64,000 nt of DNA from an uncultured Bordetella sp. (GTDB lineage: Bacteria; Pseudomonadota; Gammaproteobacteria; Burkholderiales; Burkholderiaceae_C). The position numbers and the translations under genes were made by a program. The stretch spans positions 12,638-76,637 of the forward strand of contig CAYTZZ010000010.1 in the NCBI GenBank assembly GCA_964442645.1, read 5' to 3'. Below the pieces are notes generated by a model. It saw nothing but the letters and a program-made list of their open reading frames with translations. It was not told the origin of the DNA and did not search any database. Shown here in pieces: positions 30,250-44,982 of this stretch (its first letter is position 1; each line of letters begins with the position of its first letter).

Positions 30250-31143
30250 CTATTTTCGGTTCACCAGCACAATGCCGACCGCAACACCGGTCAAGGCAGC
30301 GATCAAGCCTGGTGTCAGGGTCTCACCCAGCCACAAGGTGCCAAACAGCAGGGCAAAAATGGGCGTCAGGAAGACAAAAACGCTGATCTTGGTGGCCGGG
30401 TAGTGGGACAGCATCCACATCCAGGTCAAATAACTGGCAAAGGCGCCCACAAAGGTTTGCAGAAACAATGACAGCCAGGCAAAACCGCTGATGTCCAGCG
30501 TGGGTTGCTCGCCCAAACCCCAAGCAACAAAGGGCAAGACCACCGCGCTGAGGGCCACTTGGTAGAACAGCACTTTTTCGGGGGAGAGGGTGGCGAGGCG
30601 GCTGGCCCGAATCACCACCGTGGTGAGCCCCCAAAAAGCGCCCGCTCCCACCGCCAGCAGGTCGCCCAGCCAAGCCATGTCGCGCCCCAAGCTCTGCGCC
30701 AAACCATCGCGCAAGGCAAAAGCCGAGGCCACAAAAGCCACCCCTAAACCCAGCCATTGCAAAGGGCGCATCCGTTCGTTCTTGAGCCACAGAGGCAACA
30801 GCAAAGCCACCCAGAACGGCGCGGTGTAAAGAAAAATGGTCAGGCGTGACGCGCTGGTGTACTTGAGCCCAAGGTACATGCAGACAAACTCGGCCGAGAA
30901 GAGCACGCCCGCCAACAGCCCTGCACGCAGCGAGCCATCGGCCTGCCACAAGGGAATGTTGCGAATGCGGCACCAAGCCCACAGCGTCAAAGCCGAGCCC
31001 ATGAAGCGCAACGCCGCTTGCGACACCGCGGGCACCTCGGGCAAAGTGGCCTTGACCAGCACCTGCTGCCAGCCCCAAAACAGGCAACACAGCAGCAGCA
31101 GCGAAATCGCCAGCCAATCCAGGTGCGTGCGTCGGGTGTTCAT
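30250..31143 (-). CDS. DMT/EamA family transporter
   Basis: 10 TM, two EamA repeats; SRLTIFLYTAPFWVAL, SVFVFLTPIFALLFG. Confidence 0.88.
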   Translation of the reverse strand: MNTRRTHLDWLAISLLLLCCLFWGWQQVLVKATLPEVPAVSQAALRFMGSALTLWAWCRIRNIPLWQADGSLRAGLLAGVLFSAEFVCMYLGLKYTSASRLTIFLYTAPFWVALLLPLWLKNERMRPLQWLGLGVAFVASAFALRDGLAQSLGRDMAWLGDLLAVGAGAFWGLTTVVIRASRLATLSPEKVLFYQVALSAVVLPFVAWGLGEQPTLDISGFAWLSLFLQTFVGAFASYLTWMWMLSHYPATKISVFVFLTPIFALLFGTLWLGETLTPGLIAALTGVAVGIVLVNRK

Positions 31144-31185
31144 GCAAGGCTTGTCATAATGGATTGTCCAAAGGATACCCTTTTC

Positions 31186-32223
31186 ATGCTGCAAGAACGA
31201 ATTGAACCCGCCTGGCTTGACGCCTTCGAGACCGTCCTGGGCCGATGCGCTGTGCAAGCCGGTGACACCGTGGCCATTCTGTGTGAAAGCCAAAGCCGGC
31301 CCATCCTGCCGGAGTTGGCGCGCTTGGCAGCGGCGCGTTTGAAAGCCAAAGCTTTTGTGCTGCAACTCACCAGCGTGCCGGCCAGCGGTACGCCGGTGAT
31401 TCGCTCCACCGGGGCCTCCACCGCCTTGCAGCAGATCGGCCCCGTGGTTCAGGCGCTGGCCAGCAGCACGCTGGTGGTGGATTGCACCGTCGAAGGACTG
31501 ATGCACGCCCCCGAATTGCCCGCCATTTTGAAGGGTGGCGCGCGGGTGATCTATGTCAGCAATGAGCACCCCGAGGCGCTGGCGCGCCTGCTGCCCGACG
31601 AGGCCACCGAGGAGCGGGTCAAAGCGCATGTCAAACGCCTGCGCGCCACGCGTCGCATGCAGGTGCGCTCAACCGCGGGCAGCGATTTGAGCATCGACCT
31701 GGAAGGCGCCGTGGTCGGCGGCAACTGGGGCTACACCACGCGCCCTGGCACCATGACCCACTGGCCGGGCGGCTTGGCGCTGGCGTTCCCCAAAGCCGGC
31801 AGCGTGAAGGGCACCTTGGTGTTGGCGCCCGGCGACGTCAACCTGACCTTCAAGCGCTATTTGGAGCGACCGGTGGTGCTGACCATCGACAACGATTACG
31901 TCACCCGCATCGAGGGTGAGGGCGTGGACGCCGAGTTGATGCGCAGCTACATCGCGGCCTGGGGCGACCGCGAAGCCTATGCGGTCAGCCACGTGGGCTA
32001 TGGCTTGAACGAGGCCGCGCGCTGGGACAGCATGGCGGGCTACGACAAGCGAGATTTCAATGGCACCGAGCTGCGCGCGTTTGCCGGCAATTTTTTGTAC
32101 AGCACCGGGGCCAACGAATTTGCCAAGCGCTACACCCTGGGGCACTTTGACCTGCCCCTGCGCGGTTGCACCCTTCAGCTGGACGGCGACACGGTGGTGG
32201 ACCAAGGCCGGCTGGTCGCATGA
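31186..32223 (+). CDS. NicX-like (2,5-dihydroxypyridine dioxygenase / peptidase M29-like fold) metalloenzyme
   Basis: Matches my recollection of NicX in THWPGG, GTLVLAPGDV, SHVGYGL, RAFAGNFLYSTG and GHFDLPLR, which retain the His/His/Asp metal ligands. Confidence 0.7.
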   Translation: MLQERIEPAWLDAFETVLGRCAVQAGDTVAILCESQSRPILPELARLAAARLKAKAFVLQLTSVPASGTPVIRSTGASTALQQIGPVVQALASSTLVVDCTVEGLMHAPELPAILKGGARVIYVSNEHPEALARLLPDEATEERVKAHVKRLRATRRMQVRSTAGSDLSIDLEGAVVGGNWGYTTRPGTMTHWPGGLALAFPKAGSVKGTLVLAPGDVNLTFKRYLERPVVLTIDNDYVTRIEGEGVDAELMRSYIAAWGDREAYAVSHVGYGLNEAARWDSMAGYDKRDFNGTELRAFAGNFLYSTGANEFAKRYTLGHFDLPLRGCTLQLDGDTVVDQGRLVA

Positions 32224-35449: not shown

Positions 35450-38362
35450 TCAGCTCAGGTGCTTGCCGATGATGCCGGCCAGCTCAAACATCGTCACCTG
35501 GTCCTTGCCAAACACGTCCTTGAGCTTGGCGTCGGCATTGATGGCGCGCTTGTTGGCGGCGTCTTGCAGGCCCTGGGCCTTGATGTAGTCCCACAGTTTC
35601 TTGATCACCTCGGTGCGGGCCACGGCGTCAGCGCCAATGACCGCTGCCAACGCGGGGCTGGGCGTCAGGCCGGCTGAAGGCGCGCGCGGCTTTTTCTCCC
35701 GCACGGGCTTGGCTGTTTTCGCGCTGGCTTTGGTCGCTTTCTTGGCGGCTGTTTTGCCGGCGGCGGGCGCCTTGGCGGCTGCGCCTGCTGCGGTTTTGCG
35801 CGGCGGGTACTTGCTGGTGCGCGGCTCAAACTGAAACGACACTTTGCCGGCCTCGGGATCCCACGCCAAAAAGGCCTTGAAGGCGCGGCGGGTGCGCATG
35901 CTGACAAACTTGTCTAGCAAATCGGTTTTGCCGGTTTCCAGCAGCTTGCGCATCTGCTCGGGCGCCACCGGCTGCTGCAGGATGATCTTGCCGCTCTTGA
36001 AATCGCAACTAGCGGTGGCTTGCGCCAGCGTTGGCACCGCTTTTTCACAGACATAGTTGCTGCCATGCTCACGCACGCTGGCGCCGCATTTGGGGCACTT
36101 GCCCAGCGCTTCGCTGGCGCTGAAGTCGATCAACTCGCCGGTTTCCTCGGCATTCTTGTCATCGCCAAAGTCGAATTCGAGCTTCCAGTTCTGCTCTTCC
36201 TCATTGAACTTCAGCGCAATTTCGGCGGTGAACGGCCAGCCCGCCTTGGAGCGGAAGCCTTCCAACGGGCCAATTTTCTTGTGGGCCAGAAACTCTTCCA
36301 CTTCGGCCTGCTCGAACGCACGGCCGGCCGGGGTTTTGCCGAACGAGAAGCCGCAGCCCTCGCCCTGGCCATCCGCGCCTGCACAGGCGTAGCGGCGGTA
36401 GTTTTCTTTCACCTGGCCGCCGCACTTGGGACAAGGCGTGTGCAGCGTGACGTAGTCACCTGGCACGGTGTCGCGGTCATACTCTTTCGCCTTTTTGACG
36501 ATGCGCTCGGTCATGGCGGCGATTTCGCGCATGAAGGCCTCGCGGCTGAGCTTGCCCTGCTCCATCAGCGCCAGCTTGTGTTCCCACTCGCCGGTCAGGG
36601 CAGGTTTGGACAGTTCCTCCACGCCCAGGCCGCGCAGCAAGGTCATGAGCTGAAAGGCCTTGGCCGTGGGAATCATCTCGCGGCCGTCGCGCAGCATGTA
36701 TTTCTCGTTCAACAGGCCTTCAATGATGGCCGCTCGCGTGGCGGGGGTGCCCAAGCCTTTTTCCTGCATGGCTTCGCGCAGCTCATCGTCTTCCACCAGC
36801 TTGCCGGCGCCTTCCATGGCGCCCAGCAAGGTGGCTTCGGTGTAACGCGCGGGCGGGCGGGTTTTCAAGGCCTTGGGGGTGACCGACTCGGTCAAGGCCA
36901 ACTCGCCCGGCTGAACGGCGACCAGCACCTTGCCGGATTCATCGTCGTCTTGTGCCTCTTTGCCGTAAATGGCCAGCCAGCCCGGCTTGACCAAGACCTT
37001 GCCATCGGTGCGGAAATGGTGCTTTGCGCCTTGGTGGGCAACCTGGCTGATGCGGGTGGTCACCTGGTATTCCGCCGAGGGGAAGAACACGGCCATGAAG
37101 CGGCGCACCACCAGGTCATACAGCTTTTGCTCGGCCTCGGACAAACCGCTGGGCGCCTGCAGTGTTGGGATGATGGCAAAGTGATCGCTGACTTTGGCGT
37201 TGTCGAACACCCGCTTGGAGGGCCGGATGTAGTCGTTGTTCAAGGCGGTCAACGCGAACGGCGCGAGGTGGCGCAAGCCACTGTCGGCCAACATCTCGAA
37301 GGTTTGCCGCACGGTCGGCAAGTAGTCTTCCGGCAGGTGGCGCGAGTCGGTACGCGGGTAGGTCAGGGCTTTGTGCCGCTCGTACAGGCTCTGCGCCAAG
37401 GCCAGCGTGGTCTTGGCCGAAAAGCCAAAACGCCCGTTGGCCTCACGCTGCAAAGAGGTCAGGTCAAACAGGCCGGGGGCGGCCTGGGTGGTGGGTTTGC
37501 TTTCTTCGGTGACCGTGGCAGGCTGACCGCGCGCGGCGTCGGCGATCGCCTGCGCTTCGGCTTGCGACCACACGCGGTCGGCTTTCTTTTCAGCGTCGTT
37601 CTCGTCTTTTTGGTGGCTCGGGTTGATCCACTTGCCCGCGTATTCACCGGCTGCAACCTGGAAATTGGCGTGAATTTCCCAGTAGTCGCGGCTGATGAAT
37701 TTGCGAATTTGCTCCTCGCGCTCGACCACCACACTCAGCGTGGGGGTCTGCACCCGACCCACGGTGGTCAGGAAAAAGCCGCCGTCACGGGAGTTGAAGG
37801 CGGTGAAAGCGCGGGTGCCGTTGATGCCCACCAGCCAATCGGCCTCGGAGCGGCTGCGGGCGGCGTCGGCCAGGCCCTGCATCTGCTTTTCGGTGCGCAA
37901 GGCGTCAAAGCCATCGCGGATGGCCTGCGGGGTCATGGACTGCAGCCACAGGCGTTTGACCGGCTTGTCGATGGGTTTCTTGCCGCCCGCGTATTGTTCG
38001 ATCAGTCGAAAGATCAGCTCCCCCTCGCGGCCCGCGTCACAGGCATTGATCAGCGCCGTGACGTCCTTGCGCTTGACCTGCTTGACCACCGCATTCAAGC
38101 GGGACTTGGTTTTGTCCACCGGCTTGAGGTCAAAAAAGGGCGGGATCACCGGCAAATGGGCAAAGCTCCACTTGCCACGTTTCACGTCGTAAGCCTCGGG
38201 CGCCTGAATTTCCACCAAGTGACCCACCGCGCTGGTCACGACATAGCTGTCATTTTCGAAATGGTCTTCATGCTTTTCAAATTTGCCGGCCACAGGTGTG
38301 AGCGCCCGGACGATGTCCTGCGCAACCGATGGCTTCTCAGCGATGACCAGTGTCTTGCTCAT
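35450..38362 (-). CDS. topB: Type IA DNA topoisomerase III with C-terminal zinc-ribbon-like repeats, Lys/Ala-rich linker and SWIB domain
   Basis: IAEKPSVA, NACDAGREGELIF, VGRVQTPTL, active-site TYPRTDS, GLGTPATRA. C-terminal LTPSPALAAVIG...RTEVIKKLWDYIKAQGLQD...FELAGIIGKHL is a SWIB/MDM2 fold. Confidence 0.93.
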   Translation of the reverse strand: MSKTLVIAEKPSVAQDIVRALTPVAGKFEKHEDHFENDSYVVTSAVGHLVEIQAPEAYDVKRGKWSFAHLPVIPPFFDLKPVDKTKSRLNAVVKQVKRKDVTALINACDAGREGELIFRLIEQYAGGKKPIDKPVKRLWLQSMTPQAIRDGFDALRTEKQMQGLADAARSRSEADWLVGINGTRAFTAFNSRDGGFFLTTVGRVQTPTLSVVVEREEQIRKFISRDYWEIHANFQVAAGEYAGKWINPSHQKDENDAEKKADRVWSQAEAQAIADAARGQPATVTEESKPTTQAAPGLFDLTSLQREANGRFGFSAKTTLALAQSLYERHKALTYPRTDSRHLPEDYLPTVRQTFEMLADSGLRHLAPFALTALNNDYIRPSKRVFDNAKVSDHFAIIPTLQAPSGLSEAEQKLYDLVVRRFMAVFFPSAEYQVTTRISQVAHQGAKHHFRTDGKVLVKPGWLAIYGKEAQDDDESGKVLVAVQPGELALTESVTPKALKTRPPARYTEATLLGAMEGAGKLVEDDELREAMQEKGLGTPATRAAIIEGLLNEKYMLRDGREMIPTAKAFQLMTLLRGLGVEELSKPALTGEWEHKLALMEQGKLSREAFMREIAAMTERIVKKAKEYDRDTVPGDYVTLHTPCPKCGGQVKENYRRYACAGADGQGEGCGFSFGKTPAGRAFEQAEVEEFLAHKKIGPLEGFRSKAGWPFTAEIALKFNEEEQNWKLEFDFGDDKNAEETGELIDFSASEALGKCPKCGASVREHGSNYVCEKAVPTLAQATASCDFKSGKIILQQPVAPEQMRKLLETGKTDLLDKFVSMRTRRAFKAFLAWDPEAGKVSFQFEPRTSKYPPRKTAAGAAAKAPAAGKTAAKKATKASAKTAKPVREKKPRAPSAGLTPSPALAAVIGADAVARTEVIKKLWDYIKAQGLQDAANKRAINADAKLKDVFGKDQVTMFELAGIIGKHLS

Positions 38363-38413
38363 GCGTATGCATTCCTTGTTTCTTGCCAAATGTACCAACT
38401 GTCGCAAGCCCTT

Positions 38414-38443
38414 TTGAAATCAGCCCCGACCTGCTTCTACAAT
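38414..38443 (+). promoter_or_regulatory. Candidate sigma70 promoter for SET-birA
   Basis: TTGAAA-18 nt-TACAAT, 58 nt upstream of the SET start. Confidence 0.5.
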
Positions 38444-38451
38444 CTGCTTCT

Positions 38452-38480
38452 CGCGCGCGCACGCGCACGTGTGTACGTAT
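38452..38480. repeat. 29-bp perfect alternating pyrimidine-purine tract (Z-DNA-prone)
   Basis: CGCGCGCGCACGCGCACGTGTGTACGTAT in the topB/SET intergenic region. Confidence 0.85.
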
Positions 38481-38501
38481 TCAACTTAACAGAGTTTTCA
38501 C

Positions 38502-38975
38502 GTGGCTTCAAAATCCCCTGCTTCCCATCGCCGAATTCAGACCCGCCGCTCCGGCGTCCATGGCAAGGGGGTGTTTGCCGTGGCGCCCATTGCCGAGGGC
38601 GAGACCATCATCGAATACGTGGGCGAAATCATCACGTGGAAAGAAGCGCAACGGCGCCATCCGCATGACCCGAAAGACCCCAACCACACGTTTTACTTCC
38701 ACATCGATGAAGACCGTGTGATTGACGCACTGCACGGGGGCAACTCCTCGCGCTGGATCAACCACTCATGCAATCCGAACTGTGAGGCCGACGAACAGGC
38801 AGGCCGCGTCTTTATCAAGGCGCTGCGCAACATTGCCGCGGGGGAGGAACTGAGCTACGACTACGGGCTGATCATTGACGAGCGCTACACCCCCAAACTC
38901 AAAGCCGAATACCCCTGCTGGTGTGGCGCCCCAAAATGCAGAGGCACCTTGCTGGCCCCCAAACGCGGCCGCTGA
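38502..38975 (+). CDS. SET-domain protein lysine methyltransferase
   Basis: GVHGKGVFA, RWINHSCNPN, ELSYDY and post-SET CWCGAPKCRG. GTG start. Confidence 0.92.
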   Translation: MASKSPASHRRIQTRRSGVHGKGVFAVAPIAEGETIIEYVGEIITWKEAQRRHPHDPKDPNHTFYFHIDEDRVIDALHGGNSSRWINHSCNPNCEADEQAGRVFIKALRNIAAGEELSYDYGLIIDERYTPKLKAEYPCWCGAPKCRGTLLAPKRGR

Positions 38976-38981
38976 TTGCCC

Positions 38982-39797
38982 ATGCACTGGCCTGCAGAAG
39001 ACCTCTGGCTGGCGATTGCGCCCCAGGTGCCAGGCTTCTCGGTCGAGGTGCTGCCCACGATTGACTCGACCAACACCGAATTGATGCGGCGGGCCCGGGC
39101 GGGCCAGACCGACCCCGTCCTGCTGGTGGCCGAGCAGCAAACCGCAGGTCGCGGGCGCCTGGGTCGCCCATGGCAAAGCCAGGCCGGTGACTCGCTCACT
39201 TTTTCTCTGGGCATGCACCTGGCGCCGGCCGACTGGTCGGGCTTGTCCTTGGCCATTGGCTGGGCAATCACCCATGCCCTGGACCCCGAGCAGCAACTGG
39301 GCCTGGGCTTGAAATGGCCCAATGACCTGTGGGTGATGGGCGCTTCATCTGCGGGACCGCGCAAGCTGGCAGGTATCTTGGTGGAAACAGCCACAACCGC
39401 GCTGGGGCCTACAAGCCCCACCCCAGCGCGATATTGCGTCATGGGGGTGGGCATCAACCTGAAGGCGCCCGCCGCCACCGACAACCCGGTTCCGCCCATT
39501 GGCCTGCTGGAACTGGACGCCCGATGGACGCCCGCCAGCGCGCTCCAGCGTTTGGCACAGCCCCTGGTGGAGACCGTGCTGGCGTTTGAACGCCAGGGCT
39601 TTGCACCGTTTCAAGCGTCGTTCCATGCGCGCGATGTGTTGCGGGGCCAGGCGGTCACGCTCTCCGATGGCCAGCAAGGTGTGGCCCAAGGCGTGAATGC
39701 CAAAGGTGAATTGTTGTTGGCGCAGGGTGAACGCTTGGTCAAAGTGAACAGCTCCGAAGTCAGTGTGCGCCCCAGCGCTCGGAGGGCCGAGGGATGA
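38982..39797 (+). CDS. birA: Biotin--[acetyl-CoA-carboxylase] ligase (no N-terminal HTH)
   Basis: IDSTN, AEQQTAGRGRLGR, KWPNDL, KLAGILVE, GVGINL. Confidence 0.92.
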   Translation: MHWPAEDLWLAIAPQVPGFSVEVLPTIDSTNTELMRRARAGQTDPVLLVAEQQTAGRGRLGRPWQSQAGDSLTFSLGMHLAPADWSGLSLAIGWAITHALDPEQQLGLGLKWPNDLWVMGASSAGPRKLAGILVETATTALGPTSPTPARYCVMGVGINLKAPAATDNPVPPIGLLELDARWTPASALQRLAQPLVETVLAFERQGFAPFQASFHARDVLRGQAVTLSDGQQGVAQGVNAKGELLLAQGERLVKVNSSEVSVRPSARRAEG

Positions 39798-42880: not shown

Positions 42881-43540
42881 ATGAGCCTGAAACTGTACTT
42901 TTCCCCGGGGGCCTGTTCTTTCGTGCCCCATGTGCTGCTGGAAACCAGCGGCGCGGATTACGAGCCGGTGATGGTCAAGCTGCACAAAGGCGAGCAGTAC
43001 GGTGACGAGTACAAAGCCATCAACCCACGCAGCCAAGTGCCGGTGCTGCAAGCTGAGGGACAGGTGATCACCCAAATTCCGGCCATTTGCCAGTACCTGG
43101 ACATGGCGTTTCCGCAAGCCCAGTTTTTGCCGACCGCCCCCCTGGCGCGTGCCAAAGCTTTGGAAACGCTGTCCTGGATGAACAACACCGTGCATCCGAC
43201 CTTCACCCACATCTTCATGCCTCAAAAGTACAGCGATCAGGCCGAAGTTCAGGCGCAGGTGAAGGCTTTTGCCATACCGCAGTACCGCAAGCTGGTGGGA
43301 GAGTTGCAAAGCCTGGTCCAGCAAGCCACCGAGCACGGTGGGCCGTGGTTGGCTGGCGCCCATTTCGGCCCCCTGGATGCCTATGCCCTGACACTGACCC
43401 GCTGGGCCACCCTGGCAGGCATCAACCCAGAAGACTTCCCCGCGCTGTGGGCTTTCGTTCAAAAGGTTGCCGCCCTGCCTGCTGTGCAACGCGTGATCGA
43501 ACGCGAGCGCCTGCAATTGAACCTTTACAAGGCGGCCTAA
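42881..43540 (+). CDS. Glutathione S-transferase family protein (beta-class-like)
   Basis: LYFSPGACS, INPRSQVPVL, ITQIPAICQYL, DAYALTL. Confidence 0.88.
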   Translation: MSLKLYFSPGACSFVPHVLLETSGADYEPVMVKLHKGEQYGDEYKAINPRSQVPVLQAEGQVITQIPAICQYLDMAFPQAQFLPTAPLARAKALETLSWMNNTVHPTFTHIFMPQKYSDQAEVQAQVKAFAIPQYRKLVGELQSLVQQATEHGGPWLAGAHFGPLDAYALTLTRWATLAGINPEDFPALWAFVQKVAALPAVQRVIERERLQLNLYKAA

Positions 43541-44982
43541 GTCTCGACTTTTCGCGCCGGAAACCGCACGGTGAACTTGGCGCCCGGCGGTTGGCGCGAG
43601 GGATGCGCGTCTTCCAAAATGACCGTGGCCCCGTGCTGCTGGGCGATCTGCAACACAATGGGCAAGCCCAAACCGGACCCATCAGCCTCGGTGCCCAAGG
43701 CCCGGTAAAACGGTTGAAACACCAAGTCGCGCTCGGATTCTGGAATGCCGGGGCCGGAATCTTCCACCTGGAACACAGCCACCTGGCCAAAGCGGTCGGC
43801 CAGCACGCGCGCCGTGATCACCCCTGGCGCGTCCCGAGAGGACGGCGTGTAGTTGATGGCGTTGTCGATCAGGTTGCGCACCAACTCTTTGAGCAGCGTG
43901 GGGTTGGCCTCCAGCATCACGCCTGCGCTGCCCTGTTCCAGACCCTCGTAGCCCAAATCAATGTAGCGGTCCATGGCACGGGGCAAGGAGTCTTGAATCA
44001 CGTCCATCACCAAGGCCACCAAATCACATGGCTGACGGGCAACCACAGCGCCACCGCTTTCCGCGCGCGCCAGGGCCAGCAACTGGTTGACGGTGTGGGT
44101 GGCGCGTATGCTGGCGCGGCCAATGTGCTTGAGCGACTGTTTCAACTCGTCGGCACTGGAGTCTTCGCGCTGCGCCAAATCGGCCTGCATGCGCAAGCCC
44201 GCCAGCGGCGTTTTCAATTGATGAGCGGCATCGGCGAGAAATCGTTTTTGGGTGGCGATCGAGTCTTTCAAGCGCATCAGCAAATCGTTGATGGACGACA
44301 CCAGCGGCGCCACCTCGATGGGCACCACGCGATCGTCCAAGGGACTCAGATCGTCCGGCTTGCGGCGGCGAATGCGCTCCTCCAACTGGTTCAGCGGCTG
44401 AATGCCGCGCGCCAAGGCCAGCCACACCAACAGAACCGCCAAAGGCAAGATGACAAACTGCGGCAGCATCACGCCCTTGATGATTTCTGTGGCCAGCACG
44501 GAGCGCTTTTCCAGGGTCTCGGCCACTTGCACCAGCACCGGCTTGGCGCCTGGCAAGTCCACCGTAACCCATAAGTAGGCCACCCGCACGGCCGCACCGC
44601 GAATTTCGTCGTCACGCAGCCGCACTTCGCCACTGACCGGTTTTTCTTCGTCGGGCGGCAACGGAAAGTCGCGCTCGCCGCTGACGAACTCGCCGCGTGC
44701 GCCCAACACTTGGTAGTAAATCAGGTCGGCATCGTCAGCGCGCAAAATTTCGCGCGCAGGCTGCGGCAAATTGAACAAGACCTTTTGTTGGTCGTACCGC
44801 ACCAACTGCGCCAAGGCCTGAACGTTGTATTCCAAGCCACGGTCAAAGGGCCGACTGGCAATGCCCTGCGCCACCAGCCAAGTCAACACCAGGCTGATGG
44901 GCCACAGCAACAGCAATGGCGTCAGCATCCAATCCAGGATTTCGCCGAAAAGGGAGCGCTGCTCGCGTTGAAACAGTTTCAC
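43537..44982 (-). CDS. Sensor histidine kinase (TctE-like, 2CSK_N sensor)
   Basis: Two TMs, HAMP, H-box FLADAAHQLKTPLAGL, N-box NLIDNAINY, DSGPGI, GSGLGL. Confidence 0.9.
   Translation of the reverse strand: MKLFQREQRSLFGEILDWMLTPLLLLWPISLVLTWLVAQGIASRPFDRGLEYNVQALAQLVRYDQQKVLFNLPQPAREILRADDADLIYYQVLGARGEFVSGERDFPLPPDEEKPVSGEVRLRDDEIRGAAVRVAYLWVTVDLPGAKPVLVQVAETLEKRSVLATEIIKGVMLPQFVILPLAVLLVWLALARGIQPLNQLEERIRRRKPDDLSPLDDRVVPIEVAPLVSSINDLLMRLKDSIATQKRFLADAAHQLKTPLAGLRMQADLAQREDSSADELKQSLKHIGRASIRATHTVNQLLALARAESGGAVVARQPCDLVALVMDVIQDSLPRAMDRYIDLGYEGLEQGSAGVMLEANPTLLKELVRNLIDNAINYTPSSRDAPGVITARVLADRFGQVAVFQVEDSGPGIPESERDLVFQPFYRALGTEADGSGLGLPIVLQIAQQHGATVILEDAHPSRQPPGAKFTVRFPARKVET

Follow-up and report, generated by a model that had tools for sequence, protein, structure and literature searches.

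DNA topoisomerase III (TopB) and a predicted SET-domain protein lysine methyltransferase are encoded head to head in a stretch of 64,000 nucleotides of contig CAYTZZ010000010.1, from a genome deposited as an uncultured Bordetella sp. (GenBank assembly GCA_964442645.1). This whole stretch is referred to here as the window; all positions are those of the window, and strands are given relative to its forward strand. The two genes, topB and SET, diverge from a short spacer, and SET runs directly into birA. A family-wide, selected pairing of SET with topB and birA through this specialised spacer is well supported by comparison across the Comamonadaceae/Roseateles family, and by the same comparison the SET protein is almost certainly an endogenous enzyme and not a dedicated effector. 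As regards its function, SET may act on basic DNA-bound proteins, tied to DNA topology and coupled to topB, and the chances of this overall mechanism are judged to be about even. The genes and domains concerned are as follows.

35450-38362, minus strand: topB, DNA topoisomerase III (type IA), 970 amino acids (aa), assigned by Pfam, NCBIfam NF011313 and PDB 1d6m.
35456-35665, minus strand: SWIB/MDM2 domain, TopB residues 900-969 (PF02201, 89-94 bits against a cut-off of 25).
35669-35821, minus strand: histone-H1-like Lys/Ala/Pro-rich linker from the last zinc ribbon to SWIB, read from the sequence.
38502-38975, plus strand: SET plus post-SET protein lysine methyltransferase (predicted), 157 aa, GTG start, assigned by Pfam and by the SET1/MLL structures of the PDB.
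38976-39797, plus strand: birA, biotin-protein ligase without the repressor helix-turn-helix domain (Pfam BPL_LplA_LipB and BPL_C; TIGR00121).

The minus-strand open reading frame (ORF) of topB extends from 35450 to 38407, and its probable start is the ATG at 38362 (MSKTLVIAEKP), which gives a protein of 970 aa. Pfam recognises in it Toprim, Topoisom_bac (E 6e-110), two Toprim_Crpt zinc-ribbon repeats and, over the last 70 residues, SWIB (E 1.3e-25); the terminal SWIB had been proposed in an earlier sequence-only reading of this DNA. The NCBIfam equivalog model NF011313 (PRK14724, “DNA topoisomerase III”) is matched with 1901 bits against a cut-off of 1088, residues 1-970 falling on profile positions 1-988. 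The core of TopB has its best solved match in E. coli topoisomerase III (1d6m, E 9e-93), topoisomerase I reaching only 1e-33, and the closest solved chain to the SWIB domain is the SWIB of yeast UAF30 (E 6.5e-11). When the genome to which the window belongs was searched by tblastn with the TopB core, topB itself was the sole match at E <1e-10, a result that has no bearing on topA.

The SET protein matches Pfam PF00856 with 90.5 bits against a cut-off of 22.4, over profile positions 1-105 (91.3 bits in a search of its own genome). Its residues 12-150 align with the SET plus post-SET region of yeast SET1 and human MLL1 (E about 1e-26). The cofactor and catalytic motifs HGKGVFA, RWINHSCNPNC and EELSYDY are present, and residues G21, G23, N87, H88, C90 and Y121 are invariant among 14 sequences from the whole order and 31 from the family and Burkholderiaceae. 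The post-SET CxCx4C zinc cluster (C139-W-C141-GAPK-C146) is likewise intact; it is aligned to the post-SET of SET1 and is invariant in both alignments. With these motifs intact, the assignment as a protein lysine methyltransferase, although made by inference, is well supported. The N-terminus belongs to the conserved SET core and no signal peptide is found, so the sequence-only reading was right on this point too.

The birA start (TTG at 38976 or ATG at 38982) follows directly on the SET stop codon (38973-38975), with a gap of 0-6 nt, and the two genes therefore look like one operon. This operon link is absent from the earlier reading of the locus.

The spacer between topB and SET is itself conserved in its design. 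Its median length is 131.5 bp over 78 related loci, and an alignment of 59 spacers displays, from left to right, a near-invariant TACAAT, an alternating purine/pyrimidine tract and a block ATTCAnnnTAnCAnA just before the SET start. The elements of the spacer in the window are given below; its length and the divergent, complete SET plus post-SET gene beside it are those proposed from the sequence alone.

38363-38501, both strands: shared control region of topB and SET, 139 bp, delimited by the gene calls.
38438-38443, plus strand: TACAAT, putative -10 box of a SET-birA promoter, with TTGAAA at 38414 as -35 box, from a promoter scan.
38452-38480, both strands: perfect 29-bp alternating purine/pyrimidine tract (Z-DNA-prone), between the putative -10 boxes, read from the sequence.
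38483-38491, minus strand: TGTTAAGTT, putative extended -10 box (TGnTAnnnT) of a topB promoter facing the SET promoter, from spacer conservation.

TTGAAA lies 18 bp upstream of TACAAT, and as a SET promoter the pair scores 10/12 matches. TACAAT occupies its conserved place in 76 of 79 loci, against 0.04 occurrences per kb genome-wide; TGnTAnnnT, whose median distance to the SET start is 17 nt, is found in 61 of 79, compared with a genome-wide density of 0.21 per kb. In relatives with a compact spacer, no more than 5-25 nt separate TACAAT from the topB ATG, which leaves room for a topB promoter only on the SET side. From the boxes and this lack of room we infer that the two conserved -10-like boxes belong to face-to-face putative promoters with mutually antisense leaders. 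The putative start sites are about 26 bp apart in the window, and the two leaders would therefore overlap across the alternating tract.

No perfect alternating run in the 3.26-Mb genome is longer than the tract of the window, and the runner-up has 22 bp. Alternating runs of at least 16 bp are present in 65 of 79 family loci (median 24 bp, maximum 47), and none was found in 57 SET upstream regions or in 7 topB upstream regions of other families. Both the sequence and the length of the tract vary freely; the purine/pyrimidine alternation alone is kept. The RNA folding of the spacer is no better than that of dinucleotide shuffles (z +1.3 to -1.3), a result on which a structured RNA was rejected as the principal explanation of the spacer, and Rfam returned no family, only a chance microRNA match inside SET. 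Since the sequence varies, the alternation is kept, no folding excess is seen and no Rfam family is matched, the conserved feature appears to be a property of the DNA, either Z-DNA or a related supercoil-dependent transition. This predicted DNA property is confined to loci with divergent topB and SET and provides the best, albeit indirect, evidence that the two are regulated together.

The arrangement is a constant feature of its family. The family comprises the Comamonadaceae (Rhodoferax, Limnohabitans, Curvibacter, Variovorax, Acidovorax, Hydrogenophaga, Polaromonas, Comamonas, and Ramlibacter) and the Roseateles/Rubrivivax group, the latter including Piscinibacter, Rhizobacter, and Methylibium; its members are mostly free-living in freshwater and soil. 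Of 151 family genomes sampled at one per genus, 142 have a SET orthologue, with 59-89% identity. At 38 of 40 loci cut from these genomes topB diverges from SET, which is followed by birA, and the same arrangement was found at 78 of 80 named loci, where both exceptions are Cupriavidus, a member of another family. birA stands directly after SET at 38/40 and 77-78/80 loci of the two sets. The conservation of the SET/topB adjacency, a check that the sequence-only reading had called for, is thus established within the family; elsewhere topB or gyrB lies near SET in other geometries.

The flanks are less stable than the triad. After the triad itself, conservation is highest for a histidine kinase and a response regulator located past birA, which are kept at 27-29 of 43 loci; at the other end, beyond topB, no conserved neighbour was found in these loci. 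In the window, the kinase is a 2CSK_N-type sensor histidine kinase (43537-44982, minus strand) with an OmpR-type response regulator beyond it, convergent to SET-birA, and an ABC transporter is inserted between birA and the kinase. The kinase/regulator pair is syntenic with SET also in Burkholderia and Cupriavidus.

A profile search of the own genome found a single SET gene and, besides the SWIB domain of TopB, one other SWIB domain. The latter belongs to a small stand-alone protein on another contig (G000:C27:32191-32763; locus L002, 1495-2016, minus strand), which consists of an (AKKAAP)n histone-H1-like tail and a SWIB domain identical to that of TopB at 54 of 72 positions. Judging from this make-up, the stand-alone protein is a candidate nucleoid protein and the likely source of the TopB fusion, which would then be a “tail plus SWIB” copy joined to an existing Lys/Ala tail of TopB. 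SWIB is carried on TopB in Comamonadaceae proper only, and the TopB of the Roseateles/Methylibium group stops in a short AKK-type tail at the same point. Among 251 evenly sampled genomes of the order Burkholderiales, long SWIB-bearing frames are restricted to the Comamonadaceae/Roseateles family, and all matches listed in the search for long SWIB fusions are Comamonadaceae TopB-SWIB. SWIB is not needed for the SET/topB pairing, because half of the family has the pair without it; on this distribution the fusion is younger than the pairing, which predates it. The sequence-only reading had described a module of SET with TopB-SWIB, of which the pairing with topB stands and the need for SWIB does not.

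Outside the family, SET neighbourhoods were examined at 64 loci from about 20 other families, topoisomerase genes being sought within 8 kb. Four further families have gyrB or topB either next to SET or inside this distance. One of them has the order dnaA-dnaN-gyrB-SET followed by a convergent topB, in 6 of 6 sampled genomes as far as the contigs reach. In Polynucleobacter, SET is part of an origin-proximal dnaA-dnaN-gyrB-SET operon with a gap of 2 nt after gyrB, and in two further families topB lies 5-6 kb from SET. The convergent and divergent SET/topB arrangements cannot be interconverted by a single inversion, and the proximity to a topoisomerase gene therefore arose more than once or survived rearrangement. 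No conserved SET neighbour was found outside the family beyond the histidine kinase and response regulator pair, which accompanies SET in some families.

L024 2990-10964; L148 31-5614; L149 265-5844: gyrB-SET(-topB) loci, from the SET neighbourhoods of other families.

SET orthologues of other Burkholderiales families carry a Lys/Ala-rich or poly-Lys extension at one end, which is absent from the SET of the window. TopB and the stand-alone SWIB protein carry tails of the same basic type as these orthologues.

N-terminal SET tails: L026, L027, and L030.
C-terminal SET tails: L028, L032, L033, L038, L042, and L147.

A dedicated H1-like protein of (AAKKPAAKKV)n repeats is also encoded in the genome (G000:C8:62648-63121). 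This protein and the other Lys/Ala/Pro-tailed proteins (11 further ORFs outside the window) are, by composition, candidate substrates of SET, too many to be diagnostic.

In the explanation favoured here, SET would be a cytoplasmic protein lysine methyltransferase that is inherited vertically and serves a housekeeping function in Burkholderiales. SET-birA would be transcribed from the TACAAT promoter, which would face the topB promoter across the Z-DNA-prone tract, and this arrangement would couple the expression of SET-birA to that of topB, probably in a reciprocal and supercoiling-dependent manner. RNA polymerase may be able to occupy no more than one of the facing promoters at a time, and the GC-rich alternating tract, by changing its conformation or its melting with superhelical density, would bias the choice between topB and SET-birA. 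Topoisomerase III removes negative supercoils and precatenanes. The basic linker and the SWIB domain probably tether TopB to the nucleoid or to a partner, and SET may methylate lysines in basic tails, with altered DNA or partner binding as the result. The candidate substrates would be the linker of TopB, the small protein made of a tail and SWIB, and the genome's H1-like proteins; that the TopB linker itself is methylated by SET is unlikely. Distinctly unlikely as a whole is a fuller “writer plus topology” circuit, in which the facing promoters and the tract would read local superhelicity and set the TopB:SET ratio, and SET would methylate the Lys/Ala tails of TopB, SWIB and H1-like proteins, thereby tuning their DNA binding.

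Several observations weigh against this explanation. No topoisomerase gene was found within 8 kb of SET in about 15 of 20 SET-bearing families, so that the tie of SET to a topoisomerase put forward in the sequence-only reading holds family-wide and is absent from most other families. The co-occurrence of SET and SWIB, also raised there as a check, has a similar limit. Of the 251 genomes sampled in the order, 72 have SET and 107 have SWIB, and SWIB accompanies 62 of the 72 SET-positive genomes vs 45 of the 179 SET-negative ones, an association that is strong but confounded by shared ancestry. Burkholderiaceae keep SET and have no SWIB at all, and in a separate phylum-wide sample taken outside Burkholderiales both occur together in 3 genomes against about 1.7 expected, for which reason SET-SWIB co-occurrence was rejected as a phylum-wide rule. 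Lys/Ala/Pro-rich tails occur in 13 ORFs of the genome and therefore do not single out one SET target; a Lys/Ala-rich tail was accordingly rejected as a pointer to the substrate. The tightest link of SET is its operon with birA, and we know of no tie between the function of birA and the nucleoid. The AlphaFold2 model of SET, built on a 31-row alignment, has a low mean predicted local distance difference test value of only 62.7; its best Foldseek matches are all SET domains (MLL1, template-modelling score 0.56-0.59, 37-38% identity), and at this confidence the structural conclusion is limited to “SET-like.” The substrate, the enzyme activity, the co-regulation with topB, the promoter assignments and the response to supercoiling are moreover all predictions. 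Finally, BtSET, the SET protein of Burkholderia thailandensis/pseudomallei, has been reported as a methyltransferase of histone H3 lysine 4 (H3K4) of the host, secreted by the type III secretion system (T3SS) (Li et al. 2013, as cited in PMC3980110 and PMC7819608).

The last report suggests a host-directed nucleomodulin, exported into a eukaryotic host such as a protist to methylate its histones, as BtSET, LegAS4/RomA, NUE and BaSET. The protein of the window shares 68% identity with the Burkholderia orthologue over 145 residues, and in the window's family as in Burkholderia a 2CSK_N histidine kinase and a response regulator lie downstream of SET in convergent orientation; the SET of the window is therefore a positional orthologue of the reported effector. 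Among solved structures, H3K4 methyltransferases of the SET1/MLL type come closest, and the basic tails found in other families could double as nuclear localisation signals. Yet the protein has no signal peptide, and the T3SS secretin model TIGR02516 found no match over its cut-off in the genome, which is scored 100% complete (other secretion systems were not searched). The NCBIfam T4SS_AnkI/LegAS4 model, which describes SET plus ankyrin repeats, is matched by the SET part only, with 41 bits against a cut-off of 550. The orthologues extend across Burkholderia, Paraburkholderia, Trinickia, and Mycetohabitans and are not confined to host-associated bacteria: SET belongs to the core genes of a mostly free-living family and keeps a fixed locus in about 150 genera, it is putatively cotranscribed with the housekeeping gene birA, and it occupies the dnaA-dnaN-gyrB operon of planktonic, free-living Polynucleobacter with genomes of 1.7 Mb. 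The absence of a secretin match and of a signal peptide, the birA operon and the orthologues in the origin operon of streamlined Polynucleobacter indicate that the ancestral and, here, only plausible role of SET is inside the bacterial cell, and a host-directed function of the window protein is extremely improbable. An endogenous enzyme is also what the sequence-only reading had preferred. In turn, these data suggest that BtSET is an orthologue of a housekeeping gene present in free-living plankton.

If SET is endogenous, its place beside topB might still be a frozen gene order without functional coupling. SET would then act on an unrelated cytoplasmic target, such as a translation or metabolic protein or one tied to BirA, and the locus would be a remnant of an origin-proximal dnaA-dnaN-gyrB-SET-topB cluster. 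The topoisomerase neighbour is missing in most SET-bearing families, the only operon partner of SET in the Comamonadaceae/Roseateles family is birA, and the gyrB-SET-topB order of one family could be the single ancestral arrangement. The kinase/regulator pair shared with Burkholderia shows that plain inherited synteny does persist at this locus. A frozen order, however, accounts poorly for an adjacency that persists although its convergent and divergent forms are not one inversion apart, for a triad kept more strongly than its flanks, for a structural DNA element found in the spacer only where topB and SET diverge, and for the basic tail type common to TopB, the SWIB protein and the SET of other families. 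Its probability is put well below even, although it is far from negligible. The coupling might alternatively be post-transcriptional and independent of supercoiling, the tract acting as RNA through mutually antisense 5′ leaders of topB and SET whose hairpins or duplex would be processed by RNase III. If both -10 assignments hold, the tract is flanked by the two transcription starts and covered by both transcripts, and inverted repeats lie within the tract in several relatives. The folding energies, which do not exceed those of shuffled sequences, the free variation of sequence and length with alternation alone retained and the lack of an Rfam family all speak against such an RNA, which is considered very unlikely.

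The favoured explanation, an endogenous SET enzyme tied to DNA topology, has parallels and differences in known systems. BtSET has the same minimal SET plus post-SET architecture and the same downstream kinase/regulator pair. It differs in being described as a T3SS effector on host H3K4, whereas the genome of the window has no T3SS secretin over cut-off; moreover, SET is linked in the window to topB and birA and belongs to the core genes of free-living bacteria, whereas in Burkholderia it has neither SWIB in the genome nor topB as a neighbour. A chromatin-like set with the same four ingredients per genome exists in Chlamydia, namely, SET (cpnSET/NUE), a type IA topoisomerase-SWIB fusion, a small SWIB protein and H1-like proteins (Hc1/Hc2). 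It has been reported that cpnSET methylates Hc1 (PMC3980110), but the findings on Hc1 methylation disagree, and NUE is a secreted protein (PMC6426960). The chlamydial fusion is of topoisomerase I (TopA-SWIB) and that of the window is of topoisomerase III; indeed, TopB reaches only 194.5 bits with the chlamydial topoisomerase I/SWIB model NF004966 (PRK06319), the cut-off of which is 868. To judge from these matches, the two fusions are analogous architectures built on different type IA paralogues. Unlike the chlamydial genes, SET and topB of the window are adjacent, have a shared control region and belong to free-living bacteria.

NF011313 (PRK14724) is a curated TopB-SWIB family with thousands of database members that bear the name DNA topoisomerase III, including those of Variovorax, Acidovorax, and Ramlibacter; its annotation is silent on the SWIB domain, the SET neighbour and the spacer. 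In the collection of papers that was searched, none has both “topoisomerase III” and “SWIB.” The association of SET with SWIB has been noted computationally, an observation credited to Aravind et al. 2011 (as cited in PMC6426960). A precedent for an endogenous role is the archaeal minimal SET enzyme, which acts on a DNA-binding protein of its own cell, although its substrate family is absent here and it has not been described as linked to a topoisomerase. In Waddlia (PMC6426960) and in plastids (PMC7209962), small SWIB proteins are bound to the nucleoid. The plant organelle proteins SWIB-4 and SWIB-6 are small architectural nucleoid proteins which resemble the (AKKAAP)n-SWIB protein of the genome studied here, and SWIB-4 is described as compacting nucleoids and complementing an E. 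coli hns mutant (Melonek et al. 2012, as cited in PMC7209962). They differ in being encoded by eukaryotes, in not being fused to a topoisomerase and in having no known link to SET. A 2022 review continues to regard it as an open question whether the nucleoid proteins of bacteria are regulated by lysine methylation and other modifications (PMC10117894).

Apart from these genes, the window contains at 31018-32223 (plus strand) a 401-aa ORF without a Pfam match at E <0.001, upstream of genes for an alpha/beta hydrolase and a molybdopterin hydroxylase.

Characterised bacterial SET enzymes are treated as host-directed effectors. The locus described here offers a genetically tractable test case, with a core SET gene, a fixed partner (topB; gyrB elsewhere), few candidate substrates and a compact, unusual control region. 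If nothing endogenous were methylated, the pairing would be a striking but functionally empty conserved gene order. Given its housekeeping orthologues, the primary role of BtSET is worth re-examination. If the circuit outlined above were true, it would mean that histone-tail-style lysine methylation is endogenous to free-living bacteria and that the “effector” BtSET is a moonlighting housekeeping enzyme.

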